Origin: Clytia hemisphaerica | Taxonomy: Eukaryota | Reading direction: 5' to 3' | Length of the DNA stretch: 64,000 nucleotides | Assembly (NCBI RefSeq): GCF_902728285.1 | Contig: NW_027103286.1 | Span: 3,292,497 to 3,356,496, forward strand | Part shown: piece after piece, positions 24,901 through 47,293 of the stretch | Position numbering within the stretch: the stretch's first letter is position 1 | Layout of the letters: every line of letters begins with the position of its first letter | The notes under the pieces: model-generated | The model's input: the letters and a program-made list of their open reading frames with translations, nothing else | Told to the model about the DNA's origin: nothing | Database searches by the model: none | Translations under genes and position numbers: made by a program

Positions 24901-25269
24901 GTGTCTTTTCGAATTCTTATCACTACAACCTGTTTTAGCTTGAGAGAATTCTACCTGGGGCTGTTCCATTTAACACATACATGGGGATGGACGAACCTTT
25001 TCAAGCTAAAAAAGATTCTCGAGAATGCGCCGATATCCCCTGGAAAAAAGGAAAATTTTGCTAAAAAACCATAGGAAAAAAAACCCTTGGAAAAATTCTC
25101 CTTTTGTCTCAAATTGGGGGGTGGACGAAGTAAAACCAGTCTTTTACACCCTGGAATGTATTTTAGAGTAACTTTAACCCCCTGAAAATTAGGTTGAGTC
25201 CCTTGAAATTACAAAAAATTTCCCTGACCCTTTGGATGAGTACACGTTTTTTTTATGAGGACATTCAAA

Positions 25270-29087: not shown

Positions 29088-29246
29088 CCCAAAGAGCCAC
29101 AAAAACAAACAATTCACCGAAGCGATTACAAGTTTGACCGATACTGTTCTGGCTGCTGTGTTCATCTCCATATGGTTATTTGGAATGATTTTCTTGGTGT
29201 GCACACTGCTGTGCTGCACAAACCAAGCCATTGCTTCTTTCAACGG
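29088..29246 (+). CDS. Gene P exon 2 with a predicted TM helix (LTDTVLAAVFISIWLFGMIFLVCTLLCC)
   Basis: Acceptor tttgttacag, donor GG|GTAAGA; phase-consistent. Confidence 0.45.
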
Positions 29247-29506
29247 GTAAGAAGTTCTCTGAACTCAATTTTAACTGTCTACTGAAGGTTATAATGACGA
29301 GGTCTTTAAAAGAAGGAACCCTTTAAAATGTCCAAGGGCGTGAAAGGTTATAAATTGTTTTAAAATTTAACCACTCAGGCAAAAATCATGTCACTACTTC
29401 ATCCAAATTGACCAGAGAAAACTCTTGGAAAATCTTAAAAATTAATCAATTACGCTCGACTTGTTCATTTATTTCTAAGTACAATTTCTTGTATTCTTCA
29501 TTTCAG

Positions 29507-29554
29507 AGTGATTATCGCCAAAGATGGCCTTCCTACTAAAATTTATCATTACAT
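29507..29554 (+). CDS. Gene P exon 3 (GVIIAKDGLPTKIYHY)
   Basis: Acceptor tcatttcag, donor AT|GTGAGT. Confidence 0.35.
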
Positions 29555-29698
29555 GTGAGTCAACATTACTTTCGCTTTACACAAAAACAGCTCTCGAATC
29601 AACTTTCTATGCGTCTGAATGTCTGGGTTTCAAAGATCAAGAGTCCTTTCCCTAAAAGAATTGGTTACACAAAAGAACATCCAAATCTTCCTTCCTAA

Positions 29699-30361
29699 CA
29701 ACTCGGGTAAATTAATGCGTGTCCAAATTTTCGTTAATCTTTCGGACCCATCATCACCCCTCCTAACATAATAAATTATACCTTTAAAGAAGCGCATTAC
29801 GATGTAGAACATGAAAATCGGTGTTACTTAAATTTAGGTTTTGCCAATTTTGCGAAAGACCGCAAAAACCAAAAAATGCTGACGTCAGCAAAACTTCTTT
29901 TTTAAATAACTCCAGTTTGGCTAATGGTATGAATATGAAATTTGGACGAAAGTTGCACATCATTAAACGGATCATTTTGAAAAAAAAATTTTCGAAATTT
30001 TGCTGATGTCTGCACTTTATTACAAATTTTCGTAAATTGCTGATTTCTGCTGACGTCAGCAAAATTTGAAAAAAAAATTATGCAAAAATGTTTTTATTAA
30101 TGATATGCAACTTTCGTCCAATTTTCATGTTTATACCATTAGCCAAACTGGAGTTATTTAAAAAACAAGTCTTGCTGACGTTAGCATTTTTTGGTTTTTG
30201 CGGTTTTTCGTAAAATTGGCAAAACCTAAATCTAAGTAACACCGATTTTCATGTTCTACATCGTAATGCGCTTCTTTAAAGGTATAATTTATTATGCTAG
30301 GAGGGGTGATGATGGGTCCGAAAGATTAACGAAAATTTGGACACGCATTAATTTACCCGAG
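29699..30361. mobile_element. Foldback element: ~275 bp near-perfect inverted arms around a ~110 bp centre; arms carry GCTGACGTCAGCA (CRE-like palindrome) three times; lies in intron 3 of gene P
   Basis: 29699-29975 is the reverse complement of 30090-30361, read directly (caactcgggtaaattaatgcgtgtcc ... ggacacgcattaatttacccgag). Confidence 0.75.
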
Positions 30362-30664
30362 AATTATAACCAATATTTATTTAAGATTCTAACATTCGCT
30401 TTTCACTGAACAGCTCCACTTAGCACTTCCAGAACTTGGACAGTAGTCAAATCAATTTTTTTTTGAAACGGAAAAAAGATTTTACACAGCAAAGTAGAAT
30501 CTATTCTTGAGATTTTAGCGAATTATAATATATTTTGAGACGGAAAAGTCTTTTTGTAAGCTTCCCTGAGACAGAATAACTTTTGACACTGTAAAGACCT
30601 TAAACAGAGAAATTCACAAAAATCTTCCTTCTTGACAACAACTATCATCAATGGTTCATTTTAG

Positions 30665-30736
30665 GTATGGAAAACCCGAACCAACATGGTCGGAATACGT
30701 GTCATTGAATGTTCATTTGATGTTGGAACACATCAA
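30665..30736 (+). CDS. Gene P exon 4 (MYGKPEPTWSEYVSLNVHLMLEHI)
   Basis: Acceptor ttcattttag, donor AA|GTAAGT. Confidence 0.35.
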
Positions 30737-31095
30737 GTAAGTAAACACCTTCTTTCGTGAGGTATCTAGGTGAATCTCTTAGTCTTAGATCGGAAATAAA
30801 ACCACTTATTTCCCATCTGAAGCGTGTAACCAACGCAGGGTTGAAAGTAAAATGTATCCCTAGATTTTCTAAAACATGCCGTGTGAAAGAAAAAAAAATT
30901 AAAACGCTATATTCAATTTTTCGCTGTTTTTCATTCTAAATATGGCGCAAATCTTCAAGATTCACTTTTTCTTGCTTGACAAAGGTTAAAGATTGATCTA
31001 GCCATTTGAGCTTTAAACTCGATGGTATTGATTGTACTGTTTGTTGTCTTAGCGTTTGAGCGATTACTTAAACAAATATTTTATCTATTTAACAG

Positions 31096-31201
31096 ATCTG
31101 TATGTTTTAAAACACCACCACCGCCTCCCACGTTGTCCGCCCGTGTGGCCCGCTATTTCCAAGACCTGCTGGACCAGGCTTATGGAATTACCTCAGCATA
31201 G
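31096..31201 (+). CDS. Gene P terminal exon (KSVCFKTPPPPPTLSARVARYFQDLLDQAYGITSA*)
   Basis: Acceptor tatttaacag; stop TAG 31199-31201. Confidence 0.4.
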
Positions 31202-31269
31202 TCTTTAACAGACTACAAATCACTCAAAAAAATAATAAAATGTAAAATATAAAAAAAGTTTATAATGTC

Positions 31270-31730
31270 ATTAAAAAAGAAACTGTTTAGGCCTCAAAGC
31301 TTATTTTCGAAGGTTGAGCACAACAGTTTAAGGTTCTCAATGTTTTAAGGTGAAACTTCTTTTTCGCGCGACAATTTAGCATCAAAAAAGGAAAATAGCC
31401 CTCACATTCCTTGAGCGCCGAAAAAAAACAAATTAGCTTCTTTTTTATTTGGAAATCGACTTTTCTACCATTTTGAGATATTTTAGTTTGAAGAAGTGTG
31501 AAAAATTGAACACAATCAAATCCTTTCTCACTCTCTACAACATCAATAAAGCCCTCATTTTTCTAACTGGAATGTTTCGAATTGCAGTTTAGTTCATTTA
31601 CAAAGGAAAATAGAATCAGTTTTACCACCTTAACTAATAGAAGTTTCCCTTAAACATCTGAACGTTAAACTTTTGTGCTCAACACTCGAAAGTGAGCTTT
31701 GACAAGTCTAAACAAAAAATAGGAAAAGAT
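31270..31730. repeat. Family B dispersed repeat, second copy
   Basis: Homology to 24130-24610. Confidence 0.55.
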
Positions 31731-31809
31731 AAACTAATATCATTTCAATTCGATTTCTCCTCCCAAACCCGGTTACTATCTAAAGTTAAATAGAATAATT
31801 TTTACATAC

Positions 31810-31888
31810 CGATGTTTCGACAGGCGAATCCAATGTAATCTGGTACGGAAAACAATTTGGTTTCTGATGCAAAATTGCCATTTTCGTA
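31810..31888 (-). CDS. MVP: MVP exon 17 (YENGNFASETKLFSVPDYIGFACRNI); its 3' splice site is the seed of the adjacent minisatellite
   Basis: Acceptor ctttcag, donor G|GTATGT; matches ETAKLFSVPDFVGDACKAIA. Confidence 0.8.
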
Positions 31889-33497
31889 CTGAAAGAAAAG
31901 AGAAAGAGGTCAATTATTTGTATGAAATTGCCATTTTCATACTGAAAGAAAAGAGAAAGAGGTCAGTTATTTGTATGAAATTGCCATTTTCATACTGAAA
32001 GAAAAGAGAAAGAGGTCAGTTATTTGTATGAAATTGCCCATTTTCGTACTGAAAGAAAAGAGAAAGAAGGTCAGTTTATTTGTATGAAATTGCCATTTTC
32101 GTACTGAAAGAAAAGAGAAAGAGGTCAGTTATTTGTATGAAATTGCCATTTTCGTACTGAAAGAAAGAGAAAGAGGTCAATTATTTGTATGAATTGCCAT
32201 TTTCATACTGAAAGAAAAGAGAAAGAGGTCAGTTATTTGTATGAAATTGCCATTTTCGTACTGAAAGAAAAGAGAAAGAGGTCAGTTATTTGTATGAAAT
32301 TGCCATTTTCGTACTGAAAGAAAAGAGAAAGAGGTCAATTATTTGTATGAAATTGCCATTTTCGTACTGAAAGAAAGAGAAAGAGGTCAGTTATTGTATG
32401 AAATTGCCATTTTCGTACTGAACAAAAGAGAAAGAGGTCAATTATTGTATGAAATTGCCATTTTCATACTGAAAGAAAAGAGAAAGAGGTCAGTTATTTG
32501 TATGAAATTGCCATTTTCGTACTGAAAGAAAAGAGAAAGAGGTCAATTATTTGTATGAAATTGCCATTTTCATACTGAAAGAAAAGAGAAAGAGGTCAGT
32601 TATTTGTATGAAATTGCCATTTTCATACTGAAAGAAAGAGAAAGAGGTCAGTTATTTGTATGAAATTGCCATTTTCGTACTGAAAGAAAAGAGAAAGAGG
32701 TCAGTTATTTGTATGAAATTGCCATTTTCATACTGAAAGAAAAGAGAAAGAGGTCAGTTTTTGTATGAAATTGCCATTTTCGTACTGAAAGAAAAGAGAA
32801 AGAGGTCAGTTATTTGTATGAAATTGCCATTTTCGTACTGAAAGAAGAGAAAAGAGGTCAGTTATTTGTATGACATTGCCATTTTCATACTGAAAGAAAA
32901 GAGAAAGAGGTCAGTTATTTGTATGAAATTGCCATTTTCGTACTGAAAGAAAAGAGAAAGAGGTCAGTTATTTGTATGAAATTGCCATTTTCATACTGAA
33001 AGAAAAGAGAAAGAGGTCAGTTATTTGTATGAAATTGCCATTTTCGTACTGAAAGAAAAGAGAAAGAGGTCAGTTATTTGTATGAAATTGCCATTTTCGT
33101 ACTGAAAGAAAAGAGAAAGAGGTCAGTTATTTGTATAGAAATTGCCATTTCGTACTGAAAGAAAAGAGAAGAGGTCAATTATTTGTATGAAATTGCCATT
33201 TTCATACTGAAGAAAAGAGAAAGAGGTCAGTTTATTTGTATGAAATTGCCATTTTCGTACTGAAAGAAAGAGAAAGAGGTCAGTTTATTGTATGAAATTG
33301 CCATTTTCGTACTGAAAGAAAGAGAAAGAGGTCAGTATTTGTATGAAATTGCCATTTTCGTACTGAAAGAAAAGAGAAAGAGGTCAGTTATTTGTATGAA
33401 ATTGCCATTTTCATACTGAAAGAAAAGAGAAAGAGGTCAGTTATTTGTATGAAATTGCCATTTTCATACTGGAAGAAAAGAGAAAGAGGTCAGTTAT
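31861..33497. repeat. Minisatellite, about 30 copies of a ~52 bp unit (gaaattgccattttcgtactgaaagaaaagagaaagaggtcagttatttgtat); on the minus strand each unit is a polypyrimidine tract + CAG + the first 17 nt of MVP exon 17
   Basis: Periodicity read directly; the first unit overlaps the real exon 17 acceptor at 31888-31890. Confidence 0.9.
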
Positions 33498-33664
33498 TCT
33501 ATTTAGTCGGACACTTATATCAAGAATCAGAGCTTTGGTCTGGCCATTTTTTTGTCTGAGCTTCGGGCTGTTCTCGTATCAGCTTATATAAAGAACACGA
33601 CTTTGGTTCTCTTCGGCGAAGTAAAATTTTGGAAATAAGTTAATCGGGTAGTATAAGTACATAC

Positions 33665-33724
33665 ATCAAATTTATTGTTGGCAGCATATTTGATCTTCAA
33701 TCGTGCATGATCAAGTGTCTCCAC
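33665..33724 (-). CDS. MVP: MVP exon 16 (VETLDHARLKIKYAANNKFD)
   Basis: Acceptor caacag, donor GAT|GTATGT. Confidence 0.7.
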
Positions 33725-33871
33725 CTGTTGGGAATTGAAACAAAAGAATTTAAAGGTGAGTAACTATTAAACCCCAAAACAAGGAAGCTTGTTTACAACA
33801 ATGTAAACAATGTAGATAAGATAATTTGGGCAAGCGCTCCTCAGAGCTTTATCTAGCAACATCTGTTTTAC

Positions 33872-33951
33872 CTCAATGATGTCAGTGATATAGTCAGGAC
33901 CAAGCATGATTGCTAAAGATTTCAATGCGTTCTCTTTTTTTGGTTTGCCAG
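33872..33951 (-). CDS. MVP: MVP exon 15 (AGKPKKENALKSLAIMLGPDYITDIIE)
   Basis: Acceptor cttacag, donor GAG|GTAAAA; matches [20 protein letters not shown]. Confidence 0.75.
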
Positions 33952-34120
33952 CTGTAAGATATAAAGACAAAGAAATTATCATTATCTGATTTGACCTTTT
34001 GAAAAAGAGAAACCTTTTGTGAGTACGATAAACTTATACATGAAAGCAATGCGGTCGGGATTTTTTTTGTGGGCATATAAAAGTATTTAGGAAAGACAAG
34101 GGACAGAAGATAAAACCTAC

Positions 34121-34166
34121 CACTCAAACTCAAAACGTTGAATTCTTCTGAGGGCTCGAGCACAAC
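34121..34166 (-). CDS. MVP: MVP exon 14 (VVLEPSEEFNVLSLS)
   Basis: Acceptor aatttcag, donor G|GTAGGT. Confidence 0.65.
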
Positions 34167-34358
34167 CTGAAATTAGACAGGAACATAACAGCGTAATAAG
34201 TTAAAATGAGAAGTAAAAATTCTCATATTTATAATGGGAAGTTCATTGTAATGAATTAATCGTCAAGTTAACGAGTCAACGAAAGTTACGATAGATCTTT
34301 AAAAAATAAAGACGACTTTAATGATGATAAAGTATCCACAAATTGAAACACTCCTTAC

Positions 34359-34463
34359 CAAGTTTGGGCCAAAGACAACTCGACTGTCTTGTTTTCGATG
34401 GTCATATACTTGAACAGCTGAATTGGGTGGAACACGATAGGTGACAGTTCGTGTCTTGTCACG
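34359..34463 (-). CDS. MVP: MVP exon 13 ([35 protein letters not shown])
   Basis: Acceptor tttttcag, donor TTG|GTAAGG; matches [35 protein letters not shown]. Confidence 0.8.
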
Positions 34464-34653
34464 CTGAAAAAAACGAATCGGAGAATTAAGGAACTCATTG
34501 TCGTTTTTCTTTCTTGGCGATAGACATATTTAAGGGGTATGAATCTTTATTAACTTACATCTTAAAACATTTAGAAGAAAAAACCGCAAATTAATGAGTA
34601 ATAGGTAGAAATACAAAATGTTCCTTTCTGGATGAACGATAACGTGAACAAAC

Positions 34654-34738
34654 CTTTCCAGAAGCATAAGCATTGTCGACTGAAGATTCAAAGTAAGCCA
34701 TTTTTCGAATGTCTCCATCACCCCAGCATCCACCGTTC
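34654..34738 (-). CDS. MVP: MVP exon 12 (MNGGCWGDGDIRKMAYFESSVDNAYASGK), a variable linker region
   Basis: Acceptor ttttcag, donor AAG|GTTTGT; phase-consistent but weakly conserved. Confidence 0.55.
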
Positions 34739-34909
34739 CTGAAAATGAAAGCAAGGAATAATTATTAATAAGTTTAAGTGCAATAAAAAAGCAAGCAGAA
34801 ATTTGTGTTTCAAAAGTTATGGCCCTTTTAAGTACTACTGGTATCTTGACCCCTCTACTACAGTTTAGTCATAGTTGGCAGAGAACGTGTTAAAAATGAA
34901 ATTGCTTAC

Positions 34910-35004
34910 ATTAACATCTTTTCCACGATAGGTGATAACTCTTTCTTCCATAAGACTTCGAATTGGTTCAGTAAGCATGCTTGAGGTCCCATTACCGTAC
35001 GAAC
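34910..35004 (-). CDS. MVP: MVP exon 11 (VRTVMGPQACLLNQFEVLWKKELSPIVEKML)
   Basis: Acceptor ctccag, donor AT|GTAAGC; matches [30 protein letters not shown]. Confidence 0.75.
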
Positions 35005-35167
35005 CTGGAGATAAAGAAAATGATATTCTGGTGACTTGTGTCGTGCTGTGGCAAAGAAGAAGATATACTGATCTGATCTGATGACTTATCGTTGCACGGC
35101 TAGTTTTACAAGCTCAAGAAATTCGGTTTATCTGCAAGTTTTTGAGAAGTTCCCAAGGGTTCTTACC

Positions 35168-35228
35168 TCTCCAGTCTTTTCATTTTGAACGTAAATTCCT
35201 TCATTCTTTCCAAGTGCAATAGGTTTTC
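35168..35228 (-). CDS. MVP: MVP exon 10 (RKPIALGKNEGIYVQNEKTGE)
   Basis: Acceptor aaaacag, donor GAG|GTAAGA; matches ENEGIYVQDVKTGK. Confidence 0.75.
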
Positions 35229-35502
35229 TGTTTTAAACAAAATGAGCAAAGAATATCAATTTAACGTATCTACTACCACTTGCTTAGACAATGTTTTTAA
35301 ACAAAAGAAAGAACGACTTTCACTCCCTCCCTCAACGCGCGGGCATAAATTTGATGAAAAGTTTATTCTGCTTTATCAGCATAAGGGGAGCACCTGCTTT
35401 GTATAACATAAAAACTATATCTTTAAAATTTCCCAGTTGAAAAAAAGTATTTGGAAGCAAGCAAAACAGTTGGCTTAAAATAAATATTGAAAGGATTTCT
35501 AC

Positions 35503-35593
35503 CTGAGATTCTTTACTTCCACTTCGACAGGCGGTGTGTATACAACCGGCCCTTTGATCATCCAAACATCTCCAGGCTTTCGTTGGATGGGTT
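35503..35593 (-). CDS. MVP: MVP exon 9 ([30 protein letters not shown])
   Basis: Acceptor attttag, donor AG|GTAGAA; matches [23 protein letters not shown]. Confidence 0.7.
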
Positions 35594-35891
35594 CTAAAAT
35601 ACAAAATACGAAGTTCTCCTTTACCATGAAAATTGAAGAGTTCCTTTTTCACTAGAGCCACTATTTTTACTTTTTACAGCCATTTTAAAAAGCGTAGTGA
35701 AAAATGACAAAAACAGCCTTTCCTGTGGAAACTAACCAATTGGAAAATACACATACATTAACAAAACTTATCATCTCGAAAGAAGGGGATTTTGGAACAA
35801 TTGGTATCATTGGTGATTTTCATCACATAATGCGTCTTTTGAAAATCTTATTCTTCGTCAAACAAAGAAAAAAGACATCTGCTTTACAGAC

Positions 35892-35993
35892 CTTCACCAA
35901 AGTTGTCAACAAATTCATCGACAGCAGAGAGGATGAGGGCTTGATCATCTTGTAATAAGAAAATGTTTTGGATCCCTCCACTCAATGTCTCTC
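35892..35993 (-). CDS. MVP: MVP exon 8 (GETLSGGIQNIFLLQDDQALILSAVDEFVDNFGE)
   Basis: Acceptor ttacag, donor G|GTCTGT (weak); phase checked. Confidence 0.7.
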
Positions 35994-36166
35994 CTGTAAA
36001 AAGGAAAAAAGTAAAGAAGTTATAGTGAATAGCTGCAAATAATAACTTATACGATAAGAGACATAGGTTTGAAGGAAATTCATATTCAGCAAACATTATG
36101 GTGCGAATCTGTAGACAAATATTGCACAGTAAAATTTCCAGTTCTTCTAGAGGGTTGAACACATAC

Positions 36167-36308
36167 CAGGTTTTAAGAAGAAAGAGAGGGGTCCTTTTCG
36201 GAGTTCTTTCTTGCCACGTTGTTGTTTTCCTTCGCTGTCATAGGGATCAAGAACAATACAGAATTGATCTTTCGATAAAACTGTTATGGCAACTCTTCTC
36301 ACCAATTT
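36167..36308 (-). CDS. MVP: MVP exon 7 ([47 protein letters not shown])
   Basis: Acceptor tctttag, donor G|GTATGT; matches PITTLGPHNYCVILDP...KSFFLQPG. Confidence 0.75.
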
Positions 36309-36482
36309 CTAAAGATATGAGTGCATTTGTGTAAGAATTATAATTCAGTGCTAAAATGTCCTATGGCTTGTTATCTGTGGTTGCATCTGTATGTTTCCGA
36401 ACATATAAATTTCACATTCAAAGACTCTCCTGATTGAAGAAGATCAATATTTAAAAGCTATAAAGAAGATGAAGGGAAATAC

Positions 36483-36549
36483 CTCTCCACATTCTGGTAT
36501 ATAAGTACAACTATCACTGGACGTGACCAACCATTCTTCACCGGCAAGT
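36483..36549 (-). CDS. MVP: MVP exon 6 (RLAGEEWLVTSSDSCTYIPECGE)
   Basis: Acceptor gatttcag, donor GAG|GTATTT. Confidence 0.75.
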
Positions 36550-37008
36550 CTGAAATCAAAAGTGAGGTGGTGGTTTAGTGAAAAGTAAAAACACATCCAA
36601 AGGCTTTTAACGAAGTCAACCGGGTGGTATCCCCCAGTAATCCCTCCTTTTTTGAAGCGTTTTTGCACTATTTGAAAAGTGAATTTTAACTCCAAAACCA
36701 CTAAACAAAATTTAAAAAGTTAGCCTTCAAAATTTAAGATAGAATATCCTCATCTAATATAAGTATTTTCAGGGTCGTTCAACAATCTATTCTTTCTCAA
36801 GAAGGTAACCAACGTCCGAAGTTTTTTTTGGACCGGCCGGTATTTGTTTGAATTACAGAGAGATTCGAGTTATGGAAAGTATTTAATACTGTTTTATCCT
36901 TATAAAGGGGATTAAGAAAAAGATTGAACTATAGAAAGGTTCCAATGCTCGAATTAGAGAGAGTCAACAGTAGTTTGCTTTCACATTAAAACTTAAAATT
37001 GAGCTCAC

Positions 37009-37159
37009 CTTTTCTTGCCCAGACCATCAGTCAAGTTTCTTTCCGCAGTCATATATAAACCATTATTCTGTGTCAAAACATAGCTTTGAACAACAGACAT
37101 AATTTCCTCGTATACTCCAGGAAGGTAAGCTCCAAGTTTTCGAACCATCCATTCTTCTC
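37009..37159 (-). CDS. MVP: MVP exon 5 (GEEWMVRKLGAYLPGVYEEIMSVVQSYVLTQNNGLYMTAERNLTDGLGKK)
   Basis: Acceptor tattacag, donor AG|GTGAGC; 151 nt; phase checked. Confidence 0.8.
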
Positions 37160-37389
37160 CTGTAATACAAACCAAAAAAGATCTTTAAAAGTCGAAAAGA
37201 TCAAAGTTGGACCTTGTTTACCAATTGACCATGCCGCTTATGTTTGATTTTGTTCAATCTATATCCTCATATTGCTACTAACATCACGTTGGTTATGCCT
37301 GGTTATGCTATTGCAAATTGTTCATATCCCTTCAAATCCAAAATGAAATGAGTTCATTAAATTCTAGCAAATCATTTGAACATGCTTAC

Positions 37390-37650
37390 CTGTTACTCTG
37401 TGGTTTCCATTTTTATCAACCAAATCAATTTTAGCTTTCAAGTGTAAAGCTGAATTCTTAAGGATAATGGTAGGGCTAACTTCTCCAATTCGTTTGCATT
37501 CGGGTTTTGGGTAAAATGTGCAAGGGCCTTCGATTTGCCACCTGTCACCGGCAACACGAATCGTTCCATTGTCATCAAAGTCTGCAAGGGCTTCTAACTT
37601 CAACGCTTTTCCAGCTGGGATCACTGGAAGTTTGTTGATGCCTTTCTCAA
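37390..37650 (-). CDS. MVP: MVP exon 4 (VEKGINKLPVIPAGKALKLEALADFDDNGTIRVAGDRWQIEGPCTFYPKPE...NGNHRVTG)
   Basis: Acceptor cttttttttag, donor ACAG|GTAAGC; overlaps ORF 37364..37624; 8.8 kb intron upstream. Confidence 0.8.
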
Positions 37651-38014
37651 CTAAAAAAAAGAAAATTAAATATCAAATTATTTAGCCTGTACCAAACTCT
37701 TCTTCACAGGAAAAAAAACCACGTGGTACACCGACAAGATTATTTATTAAAAGAGCAAAAAATCGACCAGTAGGGATAGGACTGGCTATAGCAAACTAGG
37801 AGTTTTGACTATCTTCATATTATTGTTAGAGGGACCGATCGGACAATATATCTAACTATCAATATAAGTTTGTATGGTAATTGTTTCTGTTATCAAACTT
37901 TCCTGGGGTAAAGAGGGATGAAAAATATGTATTTTAAGCTAATGTTTTGATTTTTTTTAAATTTTTTGTATAAAACTAATTACAAAATTATCAAGTTTAG
38001 CTTAAGATAATACA

Positions 38015-38135
38015 TTGGAGTCTCCATAACTCTCCATTGCAAATTTGTTCAAGTTTATGAGACATAGTTAAATGAAGGGACCATGAAACTTGTTTGAGTT
38101 AAGGAGACGTATTCGAGTTATGAATTTATCAAAAT
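38015..38135. repeat. TAACTCGAA/TCGAGTTA SINE-like family copy
   Basis: ggagtctccataactc...tttgagttaaggagacgtattcgagttatg. Confidence 0.4.
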
Positions 38136-38279
38136 TACAAAAGTTATCTTCATTAATACAGTGAAAACCCAGCCACACTACCTTGGCAATTAATTCGAAA
38201 ATTAGGGAAGGAACATTTTTCTCGACATGTTTCGGACTCGAGGTAAATTTGTAAAATTAATGAATAAAATTAATATGCA

Positions 38280-38520
38280 TTACACACTTTTTTCTTTTAT
38301 AAGAACAATTCTGTAAGAACAACGATGCTCAAAATCCCAAAAAAATTTAAATTAAGAACAAATCTGAGCCTGGAATTACTCATTTCAAGCAATTTAGGGG
38401 TCAAAGTATTCTAAATTGCTTTAATTTCACCCTATAGATAAGAACAGGATAAAAACAATTTGAGGCTCAAAGTGGTAAAAAATAAGAACAGCCAAGCCTC
38501 GTCAAAAATTCACTAGTTCT
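38280..38520 (-). repeat. Family A copy, inverted orientation
   Basis: tttataagaacaa...taagaaca is the reverse complement of the family A terminus. Confidence 0.45.
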
Positions 38521-38778
38521 AATAAAAAAAAGGTGTACTAAAAGCAGCTAAAAGAGCCATTGATCATTCATTGCCTAATAACGTATGAAACTTTTTGAGG
38601 AGTAAATATATTTCTAAATATTGGACGGCAAAGTTTGGAATCTGAACGTTTCAATACGAATCAACACGAGCCTCATCCAAAATTTACTAGTTTGCATCTA
38701 AGCTAAGCAGTCTTATTTGCAATTTGAAGATTTTAAACCTCCCATCTTGTTATTGCGAAGTTTTTATTTTTTTAACTA

Positions 38779-38914
38779 CCTTATCGGCCCTTTTTACGCC
38801 GGCCCTTATTAGCGTTATTTTTGGGCTCATGGCGTAATAAGGGCCGTTGTTAAAAAGGCCGGCGTAGAAAGAACCGGCGTTAAATTAAGGTCGGCGTAAA
38901 AAGGGCCGATAAGG
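38779..38914. mobile_element. Small MITE (~136 bp): TIR ccttatcggccctttttacgccg, TA flanks
   Basis: TIRs at 38779-38801 and 38892-38914; TA at 38777-78 and 38915-16. Confidence 0.65.
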
Positions 38915-39218
38915 TAATCTTATTAAATTGACCTTTCACGACCTCCACTTTACGTTATTATTAGACTCGAGGCTTGAAAAATGAATTGAAACGAAAAACT
39001 AAAAAGCTCAAAAATAAGATAAGAATGACAGTCAAAACTAAACTAAACGGATCCGTTGGTTTTCCAACGGTTCCGGTGACTGGTCAGAAGACAACATGAG
39101 AGCGACTGTATTCACTTCATTGTAATACATAAGGGCAATATTCATAAACTATATAATGCCAATATATAAAAATGATTGCATAAAAATATACCATAAATCT
39201 ATTTTTTTGGGCAAATCT

Positions 39219-42200
39219 TCATTTATGATATTCGAGCTTAGCTTTACTGTTTAAGTAATTGATAAAAAATTGAATTTTTCTCTCGTCACTGCCAGAGTTC
39301 ATCCCGACTGTTTTTTCGGCTTCGGCGAATGGCCAATCCACCTCGACTTGTAAAGAATTCACGGTTCTGATGAAGCCGACGCAATCTTTATTGTTTAGTT
39401 CAATGACCAAACCTTGGGAGCCTATCATGACGTCAGGGATTTTCAACTTGAGCGAGAAAAACTTCATGAAAAACTTGATTTGCTGTTCGTAATATAAGGG
39501 AATTGTAGAATCCAATGGTACACTTTGAATCTCAACTACAGTAAATGGTAATGGACAGAGAGGTTTGGTTTTTGATTGATGAAAGAACTTTAAAAACCAT
39601 TTACATTCCGGTACGTCCATATCGATAATCAGTGACTCGAGTCCGACCATTTTATCCGGGATTTTGAGGACTGATGTCACTTTTCCAGAGGAATCAGTTT
39701 TAACAATATTAGTACTGGTAAAAGATGCCTCCATGTCACGTATGTCTTGAGAAGTCAAATGACTACAAATCTCAAACTTTTGGAACGGGTCTTCATCTAA
39801 CTTCAATGATGTGGCGGTGACAAGTTTAAGGAACCCCATGCATTCTTTATGGTGTTTGTTAATGAGCAACGTGTCACCACCCTTCATACAATCCGGTACT
39901 TTTAAAGTCGTGATATTGTTCTTTTCAAGCAAGTAAACAACTTCCTCAATATAATCAAGCTGTATATCAGACTTTACCTCAGCTGTTTTATCAAACGAAC
40001 TATCAACAATAACAAAATTTCGATCAACACCAATCAGAGCGATTAGGTTTTTGAACTCTGGGGTGTCCATATCAATAATCAAAGTATTTTGTCCAATCAA
40101 ACAATTTGGTCTTTTGAGTTTGAGGTTCATATCATTTATGAAGCTTGCTACTTTAATTGGTTCACCTTCCATAAGCAGTCGCTGGATACTTGCTGTAGAA
40201 TATGGACATTCAACTTGATAATTTGAATAATAAATGAAGTTAATTAACTCTCTGCAAGCATCTATAGCTGTGTTGATGATTATAGAGTCAGTATCTACCA
40301 TAGATCTAGGAAGTTCAAGTTTGAGATTCGAAGATTCAATAATGTATTTGATCTGTTCTATATTCTTTTGATTTATTTGACTGTGGATTTCGATCGATGT
40401 CATTGGATAAACTGGTTTCAATTGCAGATCATAAGCAACGTTTATATGATGTCTACACTCTGGAAAATTCGTATTGATAATAATCGAGTCAGTACTAACC
40501 ATACAGCTAGGAATGTCGAGTTTTAAATTCGAGGCTTTGATAATATATTGTATTTTTCTCATATCTGTACGATTGATTTGACTGTGAATTTCGATCGAAG
40601 TTGCAGGATAAACTGGTTGTAATTGCAGATCATAAGCAATGTTTATATGATATCTACATTCGGGGGAATTCGTGTTGATAATTAAAACATCAGAGCCGAT
40701 CATACAATCGGGGACTTTTAATTTCAAATTCAAACGTTTGATAATAGACGGTAATTTATCTTTGATGAATTGTTCATCCTCAGGCTTTAAAAATGCTTCG
40801 CCTGCAGAAAATGGATATTTGACGTAAGAATATGGACAATCCACCGACGCCCTAGTTCTATGGACAATTTTCATAAATTGGATACATTCAGTGTTCCTAG
40901 TGTTAACGACTAAAGCATTAGTGCTTTTCATCACGCGTGGAAGTCTTAATACGAGATTCAGATGTTGAACAAGAAAACTCACGAGGTCGAAGTCAAAATT
41001 AACCTCAAAGGTGATGTCAGCTTTGGCAAAGAGATGATCTTTTGATGTTAACTTCGAATCTCTCAAAAACTTAACCCACTGTTTACATTCTGGTATTGCA
41101 GTATTAATGATGAGACTATCCACGCCCTGCATACATCTAGGTATTTTAAGCTTGAGATTCAAATGTTCGACAAGGAAAACGACATTCCTCAAATCAATTC
41201 CACGAAGATCACATTTGATCTCCACTGTAGAAAATGGGCATTCTACGCGCATGCGTCCTTCATAGAGCGTCGTCATGAATTCTTGGCATTCTGGGATTTC
41301 AGAATTAACGATCAGGCTGTCCGGTCCAAACATACAATCTGGTATTTCAACAACACTATTCTTTACCAGGTACCTTTCAAATCTCCAGGATCTGAAGGGC
41401 TGTACAAATCTTCCATACATGGATGACCTACTCCGATGTAAATCAGATAGCCGTCTGAAGAATTTAATGAAAACGTCGTTCTCGTTCAAAAGTCGACCGA
41501 TACCGAACATAACAGGTGCACAACTTGAAAGCTCGCGGTTTCTTAAATATGGAGAGATTCCTTTAGTAACGTACAAATGAAGTCCTGTCAGGAATTCCTG
41601 AAGAACTAAGTGCTTGTACTGGTAAATCGGTTCTCGCATTTCACCACGATTGTATTTGACGATAAGACCCGTTTGCTCAAGATGTACGGGACATTTCAAT
41701 TGACGAACCTCCTCTTCAGAAAACAATACCTGGTTTTTCATATAAGTTTTTACCGATAAAGTCATCAATGAATAAATACAATCGATCACATTAGCATCGT
41801 CAAGCATTTCAAGCAAGTTGTCATAGCCTTTATTACATAAACCTTGTAAATGTTTCCTCAAAAAGACAAGGCATGCATACATGTTAAGTTCAGTGTAAGT
41901 ATTTAACGGTTTCGTTATGAGATCCTCGCTGTACACGTTACAGATGACCCAAGCAAACACGGGAACGGTAGACATGACTTTCAAATTATGCGATGACCTA
42001 ATGATCTCCTTCACTCGAATGGCTTTTTCAGTGTTCTCGTTAAAGAATTTATCGATGTATTGTTCGACTTCCTCCTCTTTGAAACCGCAAACCTCAACTG
42101 TTTTTATTTTGATCACCTTTCTGCTGGAAATTTTTAACTCCAGAATCTCTTTCTTTACAAAGTCACACGCTTTTGGTCTCCCAGATGCAATACATTTGTG

Positions 42201-42869
42201 GCCTTTCAAAATAGAACCTTGTGTGTTGATAAGATCGAAGACGATTTGAAAAGGAGTCAGACTTTTGACTTTCATCTTGGATTTATTCTTGGAGCGATCG
42301 TAAACACCTTGTAATTCGTCGAGCCCGTCAATGATTACCAGAATTTTATCCGCAACTGGTTCGAGATCTCTCAATGTGATCTTTTCGAAAATGTCAGGGT
42401 ATTTGATTTTAAATAGATCATCAATTGATTCCAGCTTGTCGTAGATTTGATTGATTTCACGGCATGAAAAGAAGAAGACAAACTCCATCGGGAAATCTAA
42501 TCCAAGTTGACGTTTGGCCCATTTCTGGGTATACATTTCAAGCATGGTTGTTTTTCCCATGCCACCCACAGCACGAACAAAAACTGCTTCATCCTCCTTC
42601 TGGAACAAGTCATGGAGTTCTATACTTTCTTTCTGTAAAAGCCTTTGTTCCATCAGCGCCTTACGGTCCGAATTATTGATCTCTTTTTCAACCTCGGTTG
42701 CTTTGAGGACCGCTAGTTCAGTGTATAAGTTTTCATCGTATTGGTAATTGACTTGATTCTTGTCTCCCATCAAAGGCTCGTGAACGAGTGACGTAATCAC
42801 TTCCTTAGCGTATTGACATCGTAATTTTAACGATGCTGATTGGATATCTAAAAAAAAGAATTTTGACAT
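39219..42869 (-). CDS. Intronless NACHT-family NTPase (NLR-like), 1216 aa: short N-terminal region, Walker A VGGMGKTT, Walker B ILVIIDGLDEL, then about 11 copies of a ~90-aa repeat with core NLKL.IPDCM.G.D.LIINT..PEC..F; nested in MVP intron 3, same strand
   Basis: Single 3651-nt ORF, the longest in the window; P-loop and DGLDE motifs read directly; the repeat period is visible in protein and DNA (40260-40700 holds two near-identical units). Confidence 0.85.
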   Translation of the reverse strand: MSKFFFLDIQSASLKLRCQYAKEVITSLVHEPLMGDKNQVNYQYDENLYTELAVLKATEVEKEINNSDRKALMEQRLLQKESIELHDLFQKEDEAVFVRAVGGMGKTTMLEMYTQKWAKRQLGLDFPMEFVFFFSCREINQIYDKLESIDDLFKIKYPDIFEKITLRDLEPVADKILVIIDGLDELQGVYDRSKNKSKMKVKSLTPFQIVFDLINTQGSILKGHKCIASGRPKACDFVKKEILELKISSRKVIKIKTVEVCGFKEEEVEQYIDKFFNENTEKAIRVKEIIRSSHNLKVMSTVPVFAWVICNVYSEDLITKPLNTYTELNMYACLVFLRKHLQGLCNKGYDNLLEMLDDANVIDCIYSLMTLSVKTYMKNQVLFSEEEVRQLKCPVHLEQTGLIVKYNRGEMREPIYQYKHLVLQEFLTGLHLYVTKGISPYLRNRELSSCAPVMFGIGRLLNENDVFIKFFRRLSDLHRSRSSMYGRFVQPFRSWRFERYLVKNSVVEIPDCMFGPDSLIVNSEIPECQEFMTTLYEGRMRVECPFSTVEIKCDLRGIDLRNVVFLVEHLNLKLKIPRCMQGVDSLIINTAIPECKQWVKFLRDSKLTSKDHLFAKADITFEVNFDFDLVSFLVQHLNLVLRLPRVMKSTNALVVNTRNTECIQFMKIVHRTRASVDCPYSYVKYPFSAGEAFLKPEDEQFIKDKLPSIIKRLNLKLKVPDCMIGSDVLIINTNSPECRYHINIAYDLQLQPVYPATSIEIHSQINRTDMRKIQYIIKASNLKLDIPSCMVSTDSIIINTNFPECRHHINVAYDLQLKPVYPMTSIEIHSQINQKNIEQIKYIIESSNLKLELPRSMVDTDSIIINTAIDACRELINFIYYSNYQVECPYSTASIQRLLMEGEPIKVASFINDMNLKLKRPNCLIGQNTLIIDMDTPEFKNLIALIGVDRNFVIVDSSFDKTAEVKSDIQLDYIEEVVYLLEKNNITTLKVPDCMKGGDTLLINKHHKECMGFLKLVTATSLKLDEDPFQKFEICSHLTSQDIRDMEASFTSTNIVKTDSSGKVTSVLKIPDKMVGLESLIIDMDVPECKWFLKFFHQSKTKPLCPLPFTVVEIQSVPLDSTIPLYYEQQIKFFMKFFSLKLKIPDVMIGSQGLVIELNNKDCVGFIRTVNSLQVEVDWPFAEAEKTVGMNSGSDERKIQFFINYLNSKAKLEYHK

Positions 42870-42924
42870 GAATGCTACTGAATCTCTGTCGTCTCAGTAT
42901 TTGAAGTTTTTTAGAGAATACAGT

Positions 42925-43090
42925 TGGGTCTCTCTAATTCGATCTTTAAGGGGGAAAGAATTTTCTTCGAATTGGAGAAAGATTCGAGCTACAGAAAATA
43001 TTTTGGATGACTCAACAGCTGAGGAGACCAATGTTTTAGCTCGAATTACAGACATTCGAATGACAGTGGTTCGAATTAGACAGAGTTGAC
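42925..43090. repeat. TCGAATTA/TCGAGCTA SINE-like fragment immediately 5' of the NACHT ORF
   Basis: ctctaattcgatc...gattcgagctacag...ctcgaattacagacattcgaatgacagtggttcgaattagac. Confidence 0.4.
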
Positions 43091-43253
43091 TGTAAGAAGA
43101 TTTACATCGATTAATCTAAAAGTGTGTGATTCAGATGGTTGCTTATAATGTTTAAACAAATTCAAAAGTACACAAATATAAATATTTTTATTACATGAAA
43201 AGTGTCTTCAAAAAGGAATTTTTGAATAGAAATTTCCTTAAAGTACGCTCATG

Positions 43254-43454
43254 CTAACCTTCAGTAACAAGTGTATTCTGCTTGATATTATTGATAATAT
43301 CCACTCCATTTAACCTTTCCAACTCCAATTCTAACCGTGACCATTCGACTGTTTTGAGTTGATCCGTTAGATTTTCATCTTCATTCGACGATAAACCAAG
43401 TCGTAAAAGTAATTGATTTTTCTCTTCCCCAATCTTGTTGGATATAATTTCCAA
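43254..43454 (-). other. 66-aa ORF between the HEPN and NACHT genes (…LLLRLGLSSNEDENLTDQLKTVEWSRLELELERLNGVDIINNIKQ…); could be an upstream coding exon or uORF of the NACHT gene, or noise
   Basis: ORF track; possible donor GAAG|GTTAGC at its 3' end and acceptor ttcagtag just upstream of the NACHT ATG. Confidence 0.2.
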
Positions 43455-43499
43455 AACTTCTGTGGTGCAATATATTCCAGGTTCTTAAAAAACAAAATT

Positions 43500-43920
43500 A
43501 AATTCTCTTAAAAAAGACTCCATGACATAGTACGGTGGAGTCTCCATGACTCGAACACGCACGGGGAACACAAATTTGTTCGAGTTAAGGAAATTTCGAG
43601 TTATATAAGGAGTAAGGTATATGAGGAATTGTTAACTGAAAGGACGAAAAAACTTGTTCGAGTTAATGAGACATTCGAGTTATAGAGGTTCGAGTTAAAG
43701 AGACACTGCTGTATTACTCGTTCGAGAAAGCCGGAATAGAAAGCCGGAGAAGAAAGTGTAAGAAGAGAGAGTAAGTGGGTGTTGATTTAGGGTGACTAAA
43801 AATCTATACAGTGCTCCGGTCAACACGCACGCGGAACACAAATTCATTCGAGGTAAAAGAAGACATTTTAGTCTTAGATTTTCGAGTTAAAGAGACTCCA
43901 CTGAATTATGGTGTTAATCT
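43500..43920. repeat. Two inverted copies of the TCGAGTTA SINE-like family (43500-43720 and 43780-43900), between the HEPN and NACHT genes
   Basis: tctccatgactcgaacacgcacggggaacacaaatttgttcgagttaagga... and cggaacacaaattcattcgaggtaaaag...ttttcgagttaaagagactcc. Confidence 0.5.
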
Positions 43921-43948
43921 GGACAAAAAACTATGAAAATCTTATTAA

Positions 43949-44941
43949 TTAAAATATATGGTGAAAAATACCTTTAAGTGTGGGTAAATTGTCTTTAATA
44001 AATTCATGTTCTTCTTTCAGACGCTCGACAAGGTGATAAAGATTTAAGATGCATTCTTTATTTTCTTGGTGAAAATCTTTGTGGTTCGCCAAGATGGTTG
44101 CATAATCATCCAATCTATCGCTGTGATCTTCAAGCACAATGTCGTGATCTACAAGGGTAGTATCGTGATCTGCAAGGGTAGTGTTGTGATCGCCAAGGGT
44201 AGTGCCATGTTCGTTCAAAGTAGTGTCATGTAAATTTAGGTTTTTATCTAGATTCGAAATTTCTTGGTTCTGAGTCACCATGTCTTTCTTTAATTGAATA
44301 TTATCCGCTCCAACGTGGGAAAGTTCGTTCAATATCTTTTTCGAGAAAAAGGATAAAGATTGAACTACGAGATTATTTGTGACATCAAGTGGTCTGTTTT
44401 TCAATGCGTTGAAATTATAAGTTGTGAGTCCTAAACCTATGACGATATTTTCCCCTTCACTCCATCTCAAGTTGAATTCAACCGAATCAATACTTTTGCC
44501 GTCAGCATGTAAAAGACGATTTCTCCAATCGCGTGCAAGAAGGACAAACGCTGCAGGACTGACGTCGGTTGGATCTAAAGCCTTTTTCCAACCCTTTTTA
44601 GGAGGTGGTAATGTAGTAAAATTGATAATCAAAACAATGATTAGAGTTATGTCAAACGTTTGACTGTCTGTTTGATTTGAGTTTGGGGGAAGTAAAGTAT
44701 CTACTTGGCTTTTCTTTAAAACGCCTTTCTTTGCTAACTGGTTTATTGTACTTTGTTGCTTTCGAAGTTCAATGTTAAGGGCTGTTGAGTTTCTCGGTAA
44801 GCCAACATAATTGGGATCGTTGTAATCATTATGTAAGAGAGCAAGTAGTGCGCCTTTTAGAGGCTCGTGAAGCAGAGTAGCTAATCTAAGCCAATTCTCT
44901 ATCTCTTGAATGGCCTGAGCTACAGTAACGTAGGATGACAT
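43949..44941 (-). CDS. Intronless DZIP3-type HEPN domain protein (330 aa): N-terminal HEPN (FDITLIIVLIINFTTLPPPKKGWKKALDPTDVSPAAFVLLARDWRNRLLHA, Rx4H) and C-terminal 8-aa repeats (DHDTTLVDH...), coiled-coil-like
   Basis: Single ORF; the HEPN_DZIP3 signature (FD..L..L.RN......PP..GW...P...D.S..A.I.R.K..RN...H) read directly. Confidence 0.7.
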   Translation of the reverse strand: MSSYVTVAQAIQEIENWLRLATLLHEPLKGALLALLHNDYNDPNYVGLPRNSTALNIELRKQQSTINQLAKKGVLKKSQVDTLLPPNSNQTDSQTFDITLIIVLIINFTTLPPPKKGWKKALDPTDVSPAAFVLLARDWRNRLLHADGKSIDSVEFNLRWSEGENIVIGLGLTTYNFNALKNRPLDVTNNLVVQSLSFFSKKILNELSHVGADNIQLKKDMVTQNQEISNLDKNLNLHDTTLNEHGTTLGDHNTTLADHDTTLVDHDIVLEDHSDRLDDYATILANHKDFHQENKECILNLYHLVERLKEEHEFIKDNLPTLKGIFHHIF

Positions 44942-46437
44942 CTTTCTTAATTCTTTGACAAAATCATTCTCCTCGTTTTATCTCATTATTTCAACCAAAA
45001 AATCTCTAAAGTGAAAGTTCGAAAAATAACTTCAAGCATGGCAAAAACAAAAATGACAAATTAACACATCTTCACCGAATACAAAAAATATATTTTCCTG
45101 ATATTTCCCGATTTTTTTTCCATTCTGAATAAAATGAAGGAAAAAACAATCCTTCCCTAATAAACGAAAGTTTGCAAAAAATATCAAGCTTGTAAACACA
45201 AAAAGTCACATGCCAAAATTTGACACACACAAAATTCTCTTTCTCTTTATAAAGCACACATCTCAGATTCGATTAAAAACGCAATTAGTCAGCAATACAA
45301 ACAAAAAATCTGATCTGAACCATAGAGGTATAAAGAAAACAGGAGTTGAATGTGTTGGTAATTGGTCGTTAAAGTCTTTTGATTTCTTTTATAAAATGTA
45401 TCAAAAGAAATTCTAAGCTCGCCCGATGAAATAAGACTTTTTAGTAGAACTCAAGTTTGCTCTGAACATTCTAATAATCAGTATTGAAGATTCTAGCCTT
45501 TTAATATACGAAAATTAGATAAAACTTCGTCCACGAAACAAATTTATGTTCCATTTCGCTATCCGTTCAATTTTGTTTTGAAAAGATATTTTCTCAAGCC
45601 AGAAAATGAAAAGTTCTTTATAAGCACACACGATTTCAGACTCGATTTGTAGACATAAAGTCGCTGGAGAATTTTGGAGGAAAGTATCAAGCAATAGAGT
45701 TCACCTGAAAGAAACCATTGATCGAAAAATCTTATCATTTGATGAAGGATTGCCAAGTTTACAGGCCTTTTTTTAGTCCAAATATTTTCTTACACTGATG
45801 TCAGAAACAATGAATCTCGTCTCATCTAATTTCTAAAGCTTAAATGAGCCAATAAGATTTAACCTATGGATAAAAGAGCTCATTAAAAATGCACGATATA
45901 TGAGATTATGAGCATGTATACATCGTAACTTTTTTAATCGTAGGGCGAGCTTGGTTACAATAGCATACTTCTCCTGTCTTTCTTTATACCTCCATGTCTG
46001 AACCCACTGTGCTGTGCTGTCACCGTTTGAATACCAAACAACAATTGAACAAAGAAATTTGAATTTAGCTTTGATAGACTAAAGAGACTTGAATTAGGCA
46101 GGAGGGGGTCTCAGAAATTTATATATAGGGGGTTTGGCCTTTAGGGGGGGTTGATTATAGAGAGGGGGTTTGAACCACCCAGGAAACTGTGTGAGTGATG
46201 ATAATAGACATGTTTTAAGGTACGTCATTTGTCTGATATTTTTGGAATGTAGAAAACTTTCAGACGATTCTTTTGGAGAGTTAAATTTTAATTTATCCCA
46301 AATTACCCTCAAAGTCATACGATTACTAACACTAATAAATGCGATTTTCATGTTTCTAAAAAAGTGCCCTTCCATAAGGCACCACAAGGATTAGGATAAA
46401 AATTTAATCGATCATTACAAGTGATAAAATCACTCAC

Positions 46438-46547
46438 CTCCTCCAGCAAGGATTTCACCTGGGTACAAAGAAAACGGTTCTTGATGGAGCCGAATTTCTT
46501 CAAGTCCAACTTTCAAACTAGCTTGCTCTCCATATTTTACAGGTAAT
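46438..46547 (-). CDS. MVP: MVP exon 3 (KLPVKYGEQASLKVGLEEIRLHQEPFSLYPGEILAGG)
   Basis: Acceptor ttttctag, donor G|GTGAGT; matches LAQDPFPLYPGEVL. Confidence 0.75.
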
Positions 46548-46853
46548 CTAGAAAATTGTAAAAGCAGTTTTAAGTCATCCTATTTCTGACCAATAAGTAA
46601 TTCTTGAAGGGGTTAATCGGCAAGTATTTTCCAGGTACCAATTTTTTAATTTCATCAAACAGAAAATTTTCTCTATAAAAAATAACAATACGGCGATTCT
46701 TGAGGATAAGGTATTCTCATTTTTGACTGGGTACCCCCAGTAGGGACCTGGAAGCCATGCACCATTTAGTTGGTTCAATCAGGCATAATGGTTGTGGCTG
46801 ACAACCTTTTGGAATGACCTAATAAGTGATGGACAAGGAACAAGGAGACTTAC

Positions 46854-46987
46854 TTTGCAGGGTTAGAAATTTTACAATAGTGTCCAGGAGGGATGATGAC
46901 AAATCTTTCTGGTCCATGTGTAATTTTTTGATTTTCTTGCAGAATGACACTCTTTGGCCCTTTTTCCACATAGGTGATGTTAGAATT
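46854..46987 (-). CDS. MVP: MVP exon 2 (NSNITYVEKGPKSVILQENQKITHGPERFVIIPPGHYCKISNPA)
   Basis: Acceptor tttag, donor AA|GTAAGT; length 134 = phase 0 in, 2 out. Confidence 0.75.
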
Positions 46988-47236
46988 CTAAATGGAAAAA
47001 CATTTCTAGGGCTTAATCAAAATTAAAGGTTTTAATTTTCTTGGTTCTCTAATTCACAGGGTTTCCCTTTTTTGAAAATAGAAAATAAGTATTGACAAAA
47101 ATTGAGGTTCCACAAAGAGCAATTTTGAAAATTGATGATTTGATTGATAAGTAGTAGTAGCACGGGGAGGCTGGAAAGATAACAAGGAGATTCAAAAAAG
47201 TGTTAAGAAGAAGTATTTAGTTGTAAACATTCTTAC

Positions 47237-47293
47237 CAAATCCAGAACATGAGCATACTCCAATGGTCTCAACCTCAAAATTGTGCTTGACAT
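47237..47293 (-). CDS. MVP: MVP exon 1 (ATG; MSSTILRLRPLEYAHVLDL)
   Basis: ATG at 47291-47293 (minus); donor TTG|GTAAGA; matches human [21 protein letters not shown]. Confidence 0.7.

Follow-up and report, generated by a model that had tools for sequence, protein, structure and literature searches.

We analyzed a 64,000-nucleotide (nt) stretch of the genome of the hydrozoan Clytia hemisphaerica (contig NW_027103286.1; hereafter the window) in which the third intron of the major vault protein (MVP) gene contains a further gene on the same strand. Two immune-type open reading frames (ORFs) lie in this intron. An initial annotation had read them as complete intronless HEPN and NACHT genes; instead, they represent two exons, A and C, of one gene. 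It is highly probable that this gene is a single three-exon HEPN-NACHT gene of the NLR-like type, nested in MVP after a lineage-specific arrival at the DNA level, with its own promoter and a product acting as a STAND-type sensor. The observation underlying the initial annotation was largely correct, and the gene pair, the lack of introns and the retroposition were wrong.

The host gene and the exons that delimit the nested gene are as follows (splice sites are written with exon letters in capitals, intron letters in lower case and a slash between them).

17758..47293, minus strand: MVP coding region, 26 coding exons, 845 amino acids (aa), introns all GT-AG
46438..46547, minus strand: MVP coding exon 3, 110 nt, phase-1 end (...GGA G/gtgagt)
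37651..46437, minus strand: MVP intron 3, 8,787 bp, GT...AG, host of the nested gene
37390..37650, minus strand: MVP coding exon 4, 261 nt

The MVP exons were located by tblastn and blastp with an MVP probe sequence, which was used for location only, and the exon chain was then completed by a search for splice sites that keep the frame. The rebuilt gene had an intact ORF of 845 aa. Residues 4–838 of this model aligned to residues 6–848 of rat MVP (E = 8e-234), rat and human structures were matched at E values of about 1e-234, and homologues of the model carry PF01505, PF17794-6, and PF11978. The borders of exon 3 were ctag/ATTACC...GGAGGAG/gtgagt, and those of exon 4 were ttttttttag/TTGAGA...TAACAG/gtaagc. 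Splicing of the two exons in silico gave a single frame, ...LYPGEILAGG/VEKGINKLPVIPAGKALKLEALADF..., whose peptide was collinear with residues 81–196 of solved MVP structures (3gf5, E = 3.5e-30) and matched Pfam Vault repeats. A homologue search with this 123-aa peptide returned short fragments only. The initial annotation had treated the two exons as consecutive and the 8.8 kb between them as one intron, and the GT-AG borders, the frame, and the collinear alignment bear this out.

A database search with the full-length model identified a protein of 844 aa (P0029) that was 99% identical at full coverage. It is encoded on L001, a JGI contig of 2,866 nt, which is a spliced transcript because this length is too short to hold the introns. 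L001 aligned blockwise to all 26 MVP exons (for example, 236–350 to 46547–46433 and 344–607 to 37652–37389), and an exact 60-mer (30 + 30 nt) over the exon 3–4 junction was found at its position 316. L001 comes from this species or one very close to it. The splice across 46437/37651, which had been predicted and was to be checked in cDNA, is therefore present in a transcript. These results indicate that MVP is one collinear intact locus whose mRNA joins 46438 to 37650; two separate partial MVP loci, named in the initial annotation as a reason to doubt the junction, are not supported.

Inside the intron, an ORF of 330 aa at 43949..44941 (minus strand) matched Pfam HEPN_DZIP3 (PF18738) with an E value of 1.7e-25, and an ORF of 1216 aa at 39219..42869 (minus strand) matched NACHT (PF05729) with an E value of 9.6e-18. 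Both are on the MVP strand, so immune-type coding sequence does lie in the host orientation within the intron, as had been claimed. The ends of the two ORFs that face each other are intron sequence. The final 7 codons of the HEPN ORF (GIFHHIF, then the stop) are the 5′ end of an intron, and the NACHT ORF opens with 7 codons (MSKFFFL) read from another intron's polypyrimidine tract and AG. The gene model derived from these sites has the following parts.

44942..46437, minus strand: spacer of 1,496 bp from the MVP exon 3 donor to the nested ATG, presumed promoter and 5′ untranslated region (5′UTR)
43972..44941, minus strand: nested gene exon A, 970 nt, start codon, donor AAAG/gtattt, phase 1 (from Pfam and the splice model)
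43484..43971, minus strand: nested gene intron 1, 488 bp, mostly TTCGAGTTAA-type repeat copies
43259..43483, minus strand: nested gene exon B, 225 nt, phase 1-1, a helical linker of 75 aa
42848..43258, minus strand: nested gene intron 2, 411 bp, with a weak repeat copy at 43050-43097
39219..42847, minus strand: nested gene exon C, 3,629 nt including the stop, NACHT followed by 67-aa repeats

The donor context of exon A is ...LPTLK G/gtatttttcaccatatatttTAA (phase 1). Exon B is bounded by the acceptor ttttttaag/AACCTGG and the phase-1 donor ...ACTGAAG/gttagc. The 3′ end of intron 2 (ttcttttttttag) is the source of the spurious MSKFFFL start, and ATGTCAAAATTCTTTTTTTTAG/AT, where the NACHT ORF begins, consists of a polypyrimidine tract followed by AG. 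When 44941–43972, 43483–43259, and 42847–39219 were joined, a stop-free ORF of 1,607 codons resulted, with both introns GT-AG and in phase 1; its ATG is preceded, 12 codons upstream, by an in-frame stop. Aligned over its full length (100%), the 1,607-aa product showed 100% identity to the RefSeq protein XP_066920142.1 of C. hemisphaerica, which is annotated as an ‘uncharacterized protein’ and carries PF18738 and PF05729. Because the pieces splice in frame and the product is one RefSeq protein, the ORF pair is a single gene. Its coding sequence (39219–44941) lies wholly inside MVP intron 3 (37651–46437), between consecutive host exons. Introns in the genes of related species had been named as a finding that would count against intronless genes, and introns are present in the window itself.

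The initial annotation had further proposed that the insert arrived by retroposition or by capture through a transposable element (TE), with repeats resembling short interspersed elements (SINEs) on its flanks and a miniature inverted-repeat transposable element (MITE). TCGAGTTA-type repeats are present in the window. The repeat copies and the hairpin are listed below.

43554-43716 and 43822-43908: dispersed TTCGAGTTAA-type repeat copies, in nested intron 1
43050-43097: dispersed TTCGAGTTAA-type repeat copy, in nested intron 2
21073-21213, 38053-38121, 49043-49071, and 56061-56230: dispersed TTCGAGTTAA-type repeat copies elsewhere in the window
38777..38916, no strand assigned: MITE-like hairpin with 34-nt arms, 91% complementary, and a 72-nt loop

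The repeats exist as described, but they do not flank an insert. Copies lie inside the introns of the nested gene, and the TTCGAGTTAA-rich family is dispersed through the window in both orientations, with copies of ~70–175 nt at 76–87% identity; the copy downstream of the nested gene (38053–38121) is 81% identical to 43617–43683. These repeats are therefore a dispersed family and not boundary marks of the insert. Tests for a SINE head were negative: ARAGORN, run on the whole window, found nothing resembling a tRNA, and Rfam gave no match in 17000–48000. The SINE label is unproven. The MITE had been placed near 38779–38914. A hairpin stands there, 300–440 nt past the nested stop and directly upstream of an AATAAA (38763–38768), but the window contains no second copy of it, and no clear target-site duplication accompanies it.

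Remnants of retroposition at the boundaries, which had been suggested as a check, were searched for with negative results. No poly(A) remnant was found, the 1,568 bp downstream of the nested stop having a single A8 run, no flanking direct repeats that could be a target-site duplication were found around the nested gene, and blastn of both flanks against the window gave no matching termini of the long terminal repeat (LTR) or terminal inverted repeat (TIR) kind. The sole flanking inverted repeat, 38 nt at 71%, is at chance level.

The introns were also compared with those of a distant homologue, 36–51% identical, on an environmental contig (L004; ENA ERZ25072490 ctg195523, 40804–63458). The homologue has two introns at the same positions and in the same phase as the Clytia gene. 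Its intron 2 (100 nt) reads ...DTLVTK G/gtttga...ttgtttttag/GT IELASSKLR, where the Clytia gene reads ...NTLVTE G/gt...ag/AT IQSASLKLR, and the donor of its intron 1 (G/gtattt) gives the same ‘GIF’ read-through. Two introns shared by position and phase are thus ancestral to the family, and retroposition is rejected on this ground. A retrocopy was ruled out by the two GT-AG phase-1 introns together with the lack of a poly(A) remnant and of a target-site duplication, and TE-captured cargo by the lack of terminal repeats bounding the insert.

The L004 contig has a GC content of 33% and is unrelated to the window. It carries a tandem cluster of a NACHT-repeat gene followed by a HEPN-linker-NACHT-repeat gene, the latter with an extra break after Walker A, and no MVP sequence was found within 10 kb on either side of the cluster. 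A prokaryote-style gene caller had split the homologue into ‘HEPN’ and ‘NACHT’ genes.

We compared the MVP locus with those of two other cnidarians to date the insertion. In Hydractinia symbiolongicarpus (L002, CM055240.1), MVP spans 11.2 kb without a nested gene call, and the homologous intron is about 294 bp in phase 1 (...LAHSFRS A/gtcagt...ctttag/AC YKMAIIKLPVV). The corresponding MVP intron of Rhopilema esculentum (L003) is about 510 bp, also without a nested gene call. A tblastn search with the 1,607-aa protein gave no match in either MVP locus. In the window, an F-box gene (ORF of 376 aa, PF12937; 12951–14081, minus strand) lies directly downstream of MVP, and a 367-aa F-box gene has the same position downstream of MVP in Hydractinia (L002, 22410–23513); this synteny indicates that the two MVP loci are orthologous. 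The comparison of the orthologous intron, which the initial annotation had proposed, thus showed the insert to be absent from both relatives. Sequence comparison places the insertion in the Clytia lineage, into an intron that appears to have been ancestrally short (about 0.3–0.5 kb). A member of the HEPN-NACHT family would have entered MVP intron 3 by DNA-level duplication or transposition, bringing its own introns and flanks. Such a route is likely because the introns were kept and the family forms tandem clusters elsewhere (L004).

The domain order points to an NLR-like STAND protein with a HEPN domain, a coiled coil, a helical linker, a NACHT domain, and about 10 repeats in the usual place of the LRRs. 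PF18738 was matched at 90 bits against a cut-off of 27, and PF05729 at 65 bits against a cut-off of 26.7. The HEPN domain has its Rx4H motif intact (RNRLLH), and RNxxxH was conserved in 4/4 Clytia paralogues; the domain is therefore predicted, from this motif, to be a metal-independent RNase. Exon A also encodes a coiled-coil/HDTTL-repeat region. The NACHT domain has Walker A GGMGKT and Walker B DGLDE (VIIDGLDE), which are kept in the paralogues as GG(M/T/V)GK(T/S) and DGLDE, respectively. The HEPN-linker-NACHT order recurs in three Clytia paralogues, at 61, 39, and 37% identity.

The linker encoded by exon B is kept in four Clytia paralogues (35–64% identity) and had no match in a Pfam search. 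Its AlphaFold2 (AF2) model is helical, with a predicted local distance difference test score (pLDDT) of 76.8; the top PDB match, the RIPK1 death domain, was not significant (E = 1.6, template modelling (TM) score 0.43). The C-terminal LRRs of a prototypical NLR were absent from the protein. Its C-terminal half consists of ~10 units of a 67-aa repeat (about 39222–41357) with the motif NLKLKIPxCMxGxDSLIINTxxPEC.... The AF2 model of three units, built on an alignment of 7 internal non-overlapping repeat windows, had a pLDDT of 91 and a predicted TM score (pTM) of 0.83, and each modelled unit was strand-helix-strand-helix. The repeat gave no match to a known fold. A profile search against 1.84 billion representative proteins returned 28 matches only; in 9/9 long matches scanned, NACHT was N-terminal to the repeat, and the named matches were all from Clytia. 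The repeat is thus narrowly distributed and NACHT-associated and may be a new sensor fold. At 40270–40671, two adjacent 201-nt units (67 codons each) form a tandem DNA duplication with 77–80% identity, which suggests a recent unit-level expansion of the array.

In regards to transcription, the 1.5 kb spacer upstream would contain a promoter of the nested gene itself, and the gene's transcript would end near the AATAAA at 38768, 450 nt past the nested stop; a further AATAAA lies at 37748. An acceptor-like site (ttcactttag/AG) at about 45008 may reflect a 5′UTR intron of the nested gene. The MVP pre-mRNA would read through the nested gene, and the whole unit would be spliced out; as the full-length MVP mRNA (L001) exists, MVP transcription reads through the nested gene's poly(A) signal. 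A chimeric MVP-NLR protein was considered and rejected: read from exon 3 into the site at ~45008, the frame runs into a stop after no more than 6 codons, and 12 codons upstream of the NLR ATG there is a further stop, in frame. At the protein level, the repeat region would bind a ligand, the NACHT domain would drive NTP-dependent oligomerisation, and oligomerisation would bring the HEPN domains together to cleave RNA, with RNase L as the analogue.

Several points weigh against the reading of a lineage-specific, independently transcribed nested sensor gene. The RefSeq model of XP_066920142.1 is a prediction, and L001, which comes from an environmental transcript assembly, falls short of full identity to the window (98–99%). 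As Hydractinia and Rhopilema are only distantly related, the insertion is dated only as after the split between Clytia and Hydractinia. The promoter, 5′UTR, and poly(A) site of the nested gene, and its independence from MVP transcription, are what we infer for it, and the putative RNase activity and ligand sensing are drawn from motif conservation and analogy only.

Four other explanations were weighed. The nesting could be functional, with sense transcription and polyadenylation of the NLR gene modulating MVP output, or with MVP read-through supplying NLR transcripts. Effects of nested genes on their hosts are known (PMC11694760, PMC3192792), and the early position of the intron, the sense orientation, and the AATAAA signals at 38768 and 37748 would fit such a role. 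Yet the full-length MVP mRNA exists, a transcript joining exon 3 to the NLR gene would run into stops within 6 codons, and the arrangement is absent in two other cnidarians and is therefore not needed for MVP function. We regard this explanation as unlikely. An equally improbable extension would hold that the 67-aa repeat, on the strength of its modelled fold, is an undescribed solenoid sensor domain replacing the LRRs in a few hydrozoan NACHT proteins, and that the nesting couples expression to vault production via read-through or premature termination.

It is also conceivable, with a still smaller chance, that one gene gives alternative products, namely a HEPN-only protein of 330 aa by retention of intron 1 and a NACHT-only protein from the ATG at 42869 in intron 2. 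Both truncated ORFs are open as read, and free-standing HEPN and NACHT proteins occur in cnidarians (PMC8260672). However, the ATG at 42869 falls in the polypyrimidine tract of a strong acceptor, 22 nt upstream of it, and the ‘GIF’ read-through recurs in L004 because the donor GTATTT is conserved. Moreover, the protein database holds the fused isoform only, in a single-member cluster.

An assembly artefact or a haplotype-specific insertion as the cause of the nesting is very unlikely. L001 demonstrates the exon 3–4 junction in mRNA, which is not the same as an 8.8 kb spacing in every genome, and Clytia is highly polymorphic, with differences of 1–2% between L001 and the window. On the other side, N runs are absent from the window, the borders of the intron and the nested gene itself are clean, the contig from which RefSeq annotates the protein is 3.97 Mb long, and a second MVP intron is expanded likewise (10.8 kb).

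Two complete intronless HEPN and NACHT genes, retroposed or TE-captured and bounded by the SINE-like repeats, can be set aside almost entirely, for although there are two long ORFs with an ATG and a stop each, repeats near both, and a gene caller that also splits the L004 locus in two, the ORF ends are intron, the splice runs in frame through a conserved 75-aa exon into a single RefSeq protein, the introns are conserved in a distant homologue, the repeats are dispersed, and neither poly(A), target-site duplication, nor LTR/TIR was found.

The preferred reading, one three-exon gene nested in MVP intron 3, agrees with what has been reported for host/nested gene pairs. Such pairs involve more than a tenth of mouse and human genes, favour long 5′ introns, and are nearly balanced between same and opposite orientation (PMC11694760); same-strand nesting is therefore not exceptional. 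Premature polyadenylation and altered isoforms of the host gene are among the known effects of nesting (PMC11694760, PMC3192792). As in other metazoan pairs, a complete gene lies inside a long 5′-proximal intron and the host splices across it. The Clytia case differs in that it is hydrozoan, the host is MVP, and the lineage-specificity is demonstrable; nothing essential is different. Intronic retrogenes share the lineage-specific insertion into a host intron, whereas the Clytia gene has two introns at ancestral positions and neither a poly(A) remnant nor a target-site duplication.

Among the non-LRR partners of NACHT in C. hemisphaerica, the DZIP3-type HEPN is reported as the most frequent, and free-standing HEPN and NACHT proteins occur in cnidarians (Emery et al. 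2021, PMC8260672). Fusions of animal DZIP3-family HEPN domains to NACHT, DEATH, and LRR have been listed, and in the Rx4-6H motif, which has a polar residue after R, the R and H act as catalytic residues of related RNases (Anantharaman et al. 2013, PMC3710099). The nested gene's product resembles cnidarian HEPN-NACHT NLR-like proteins in its N-terminal PF18738 with Rx4H, the following PF05729 with Walker A/B, and the lineage-specific expansion. Coral and octocoral matches have C-terminal LRR, WD40, or TPR, in contrast to the 67-aa beta/alpha repeat of the nested Clytia protein. RNase L (ankyrin sensor, pseudokinase, KEN/HEPN RNase) is taken as a functional analogue, with no family assignment. 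There, a repeat domain senses the ligand, oligomerisation follows, HEPN-type RNases are juxtaposed, and the R and H of Rx4-6H are essential (PMC3710099). Unlike RNase L, which has a KEN HEPN and a pseudokinase, the Clytia protein has an N-terminal DZIP3 HEPN and a NACHT STAND NTPase.

The gene is already in RefSeq, the HEPN-NACHT architecture in Clytia is already published, and the arrangement is that of a normal nested gene. Since host/nested pairs are common, nesting itself matters little. The nesting in MVP and its lineage-specific origin were not met in the literature searched, with searches that were not aimed at MVP nesting. The locus is a clean case that can be dated: a multi-exon gene of an immune family entered, most likely at the DNA level, an ancestrally short intron of a conserved gene of the housekeeping type. 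Reading by ORFs and prokaryote-style gene callers, as on L004, break HEPN-NACHT genes into false ‘pairs’.

The following ORFs of the window are unrelated to the nested gene.

5393-6424, plus strand: ORF of 343 aa without a clear domain
7996-8823 and 62928-63428, plus strand: ORFs containing C2H2 zinc fingers
57093-57548, plus strand: weak ricin-B-lectin-like ORF

Further observations concern other MVP introns. The alignment of L001 skips from 17730 to 17037, which implies an MVP 3′UTR intron of ~690 bp (~17038–17729, minus strand) starting ~28 nt past the stop codon (17758–17760). MVP intron 17 (21045–31809) is 10,765 bp, compared with about 320–375 bp in Hydractinia and Rhopilema. ORF reading, with no profile searches made, found short or low-complexity ORFs only and no second nested gene in this intron; one ORF (28100–28585, plus strand) encodes 161 aa and is Ser/Thr/Arg-rich and of low complexity. 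The dispersed repeat copy at 21073–21213 lies just upstream of the intron 17 acceptor.

MVP intron 16 is filled nearly wholly by a 53-bp minisatellite (31872–33498), in about 31 copies with 95% matches. The unit, when read on the gene strand, comprises the 3′ splice site (polypyrimidine tract and cag) followed by the opening 17 nt of exon 17. The sequence TTTCAGTA[CT]GAAAATGG is kept exactly in 27 copies, and 53 is not a multiple of 3. Since the copies keep the splice site, about 27–30 decoy acceptors precede the real one. The last acceptor is used, as L001 carries a single copy of the unit. The minisatellite also accounts for the spike in GC skew at 32001–34000.

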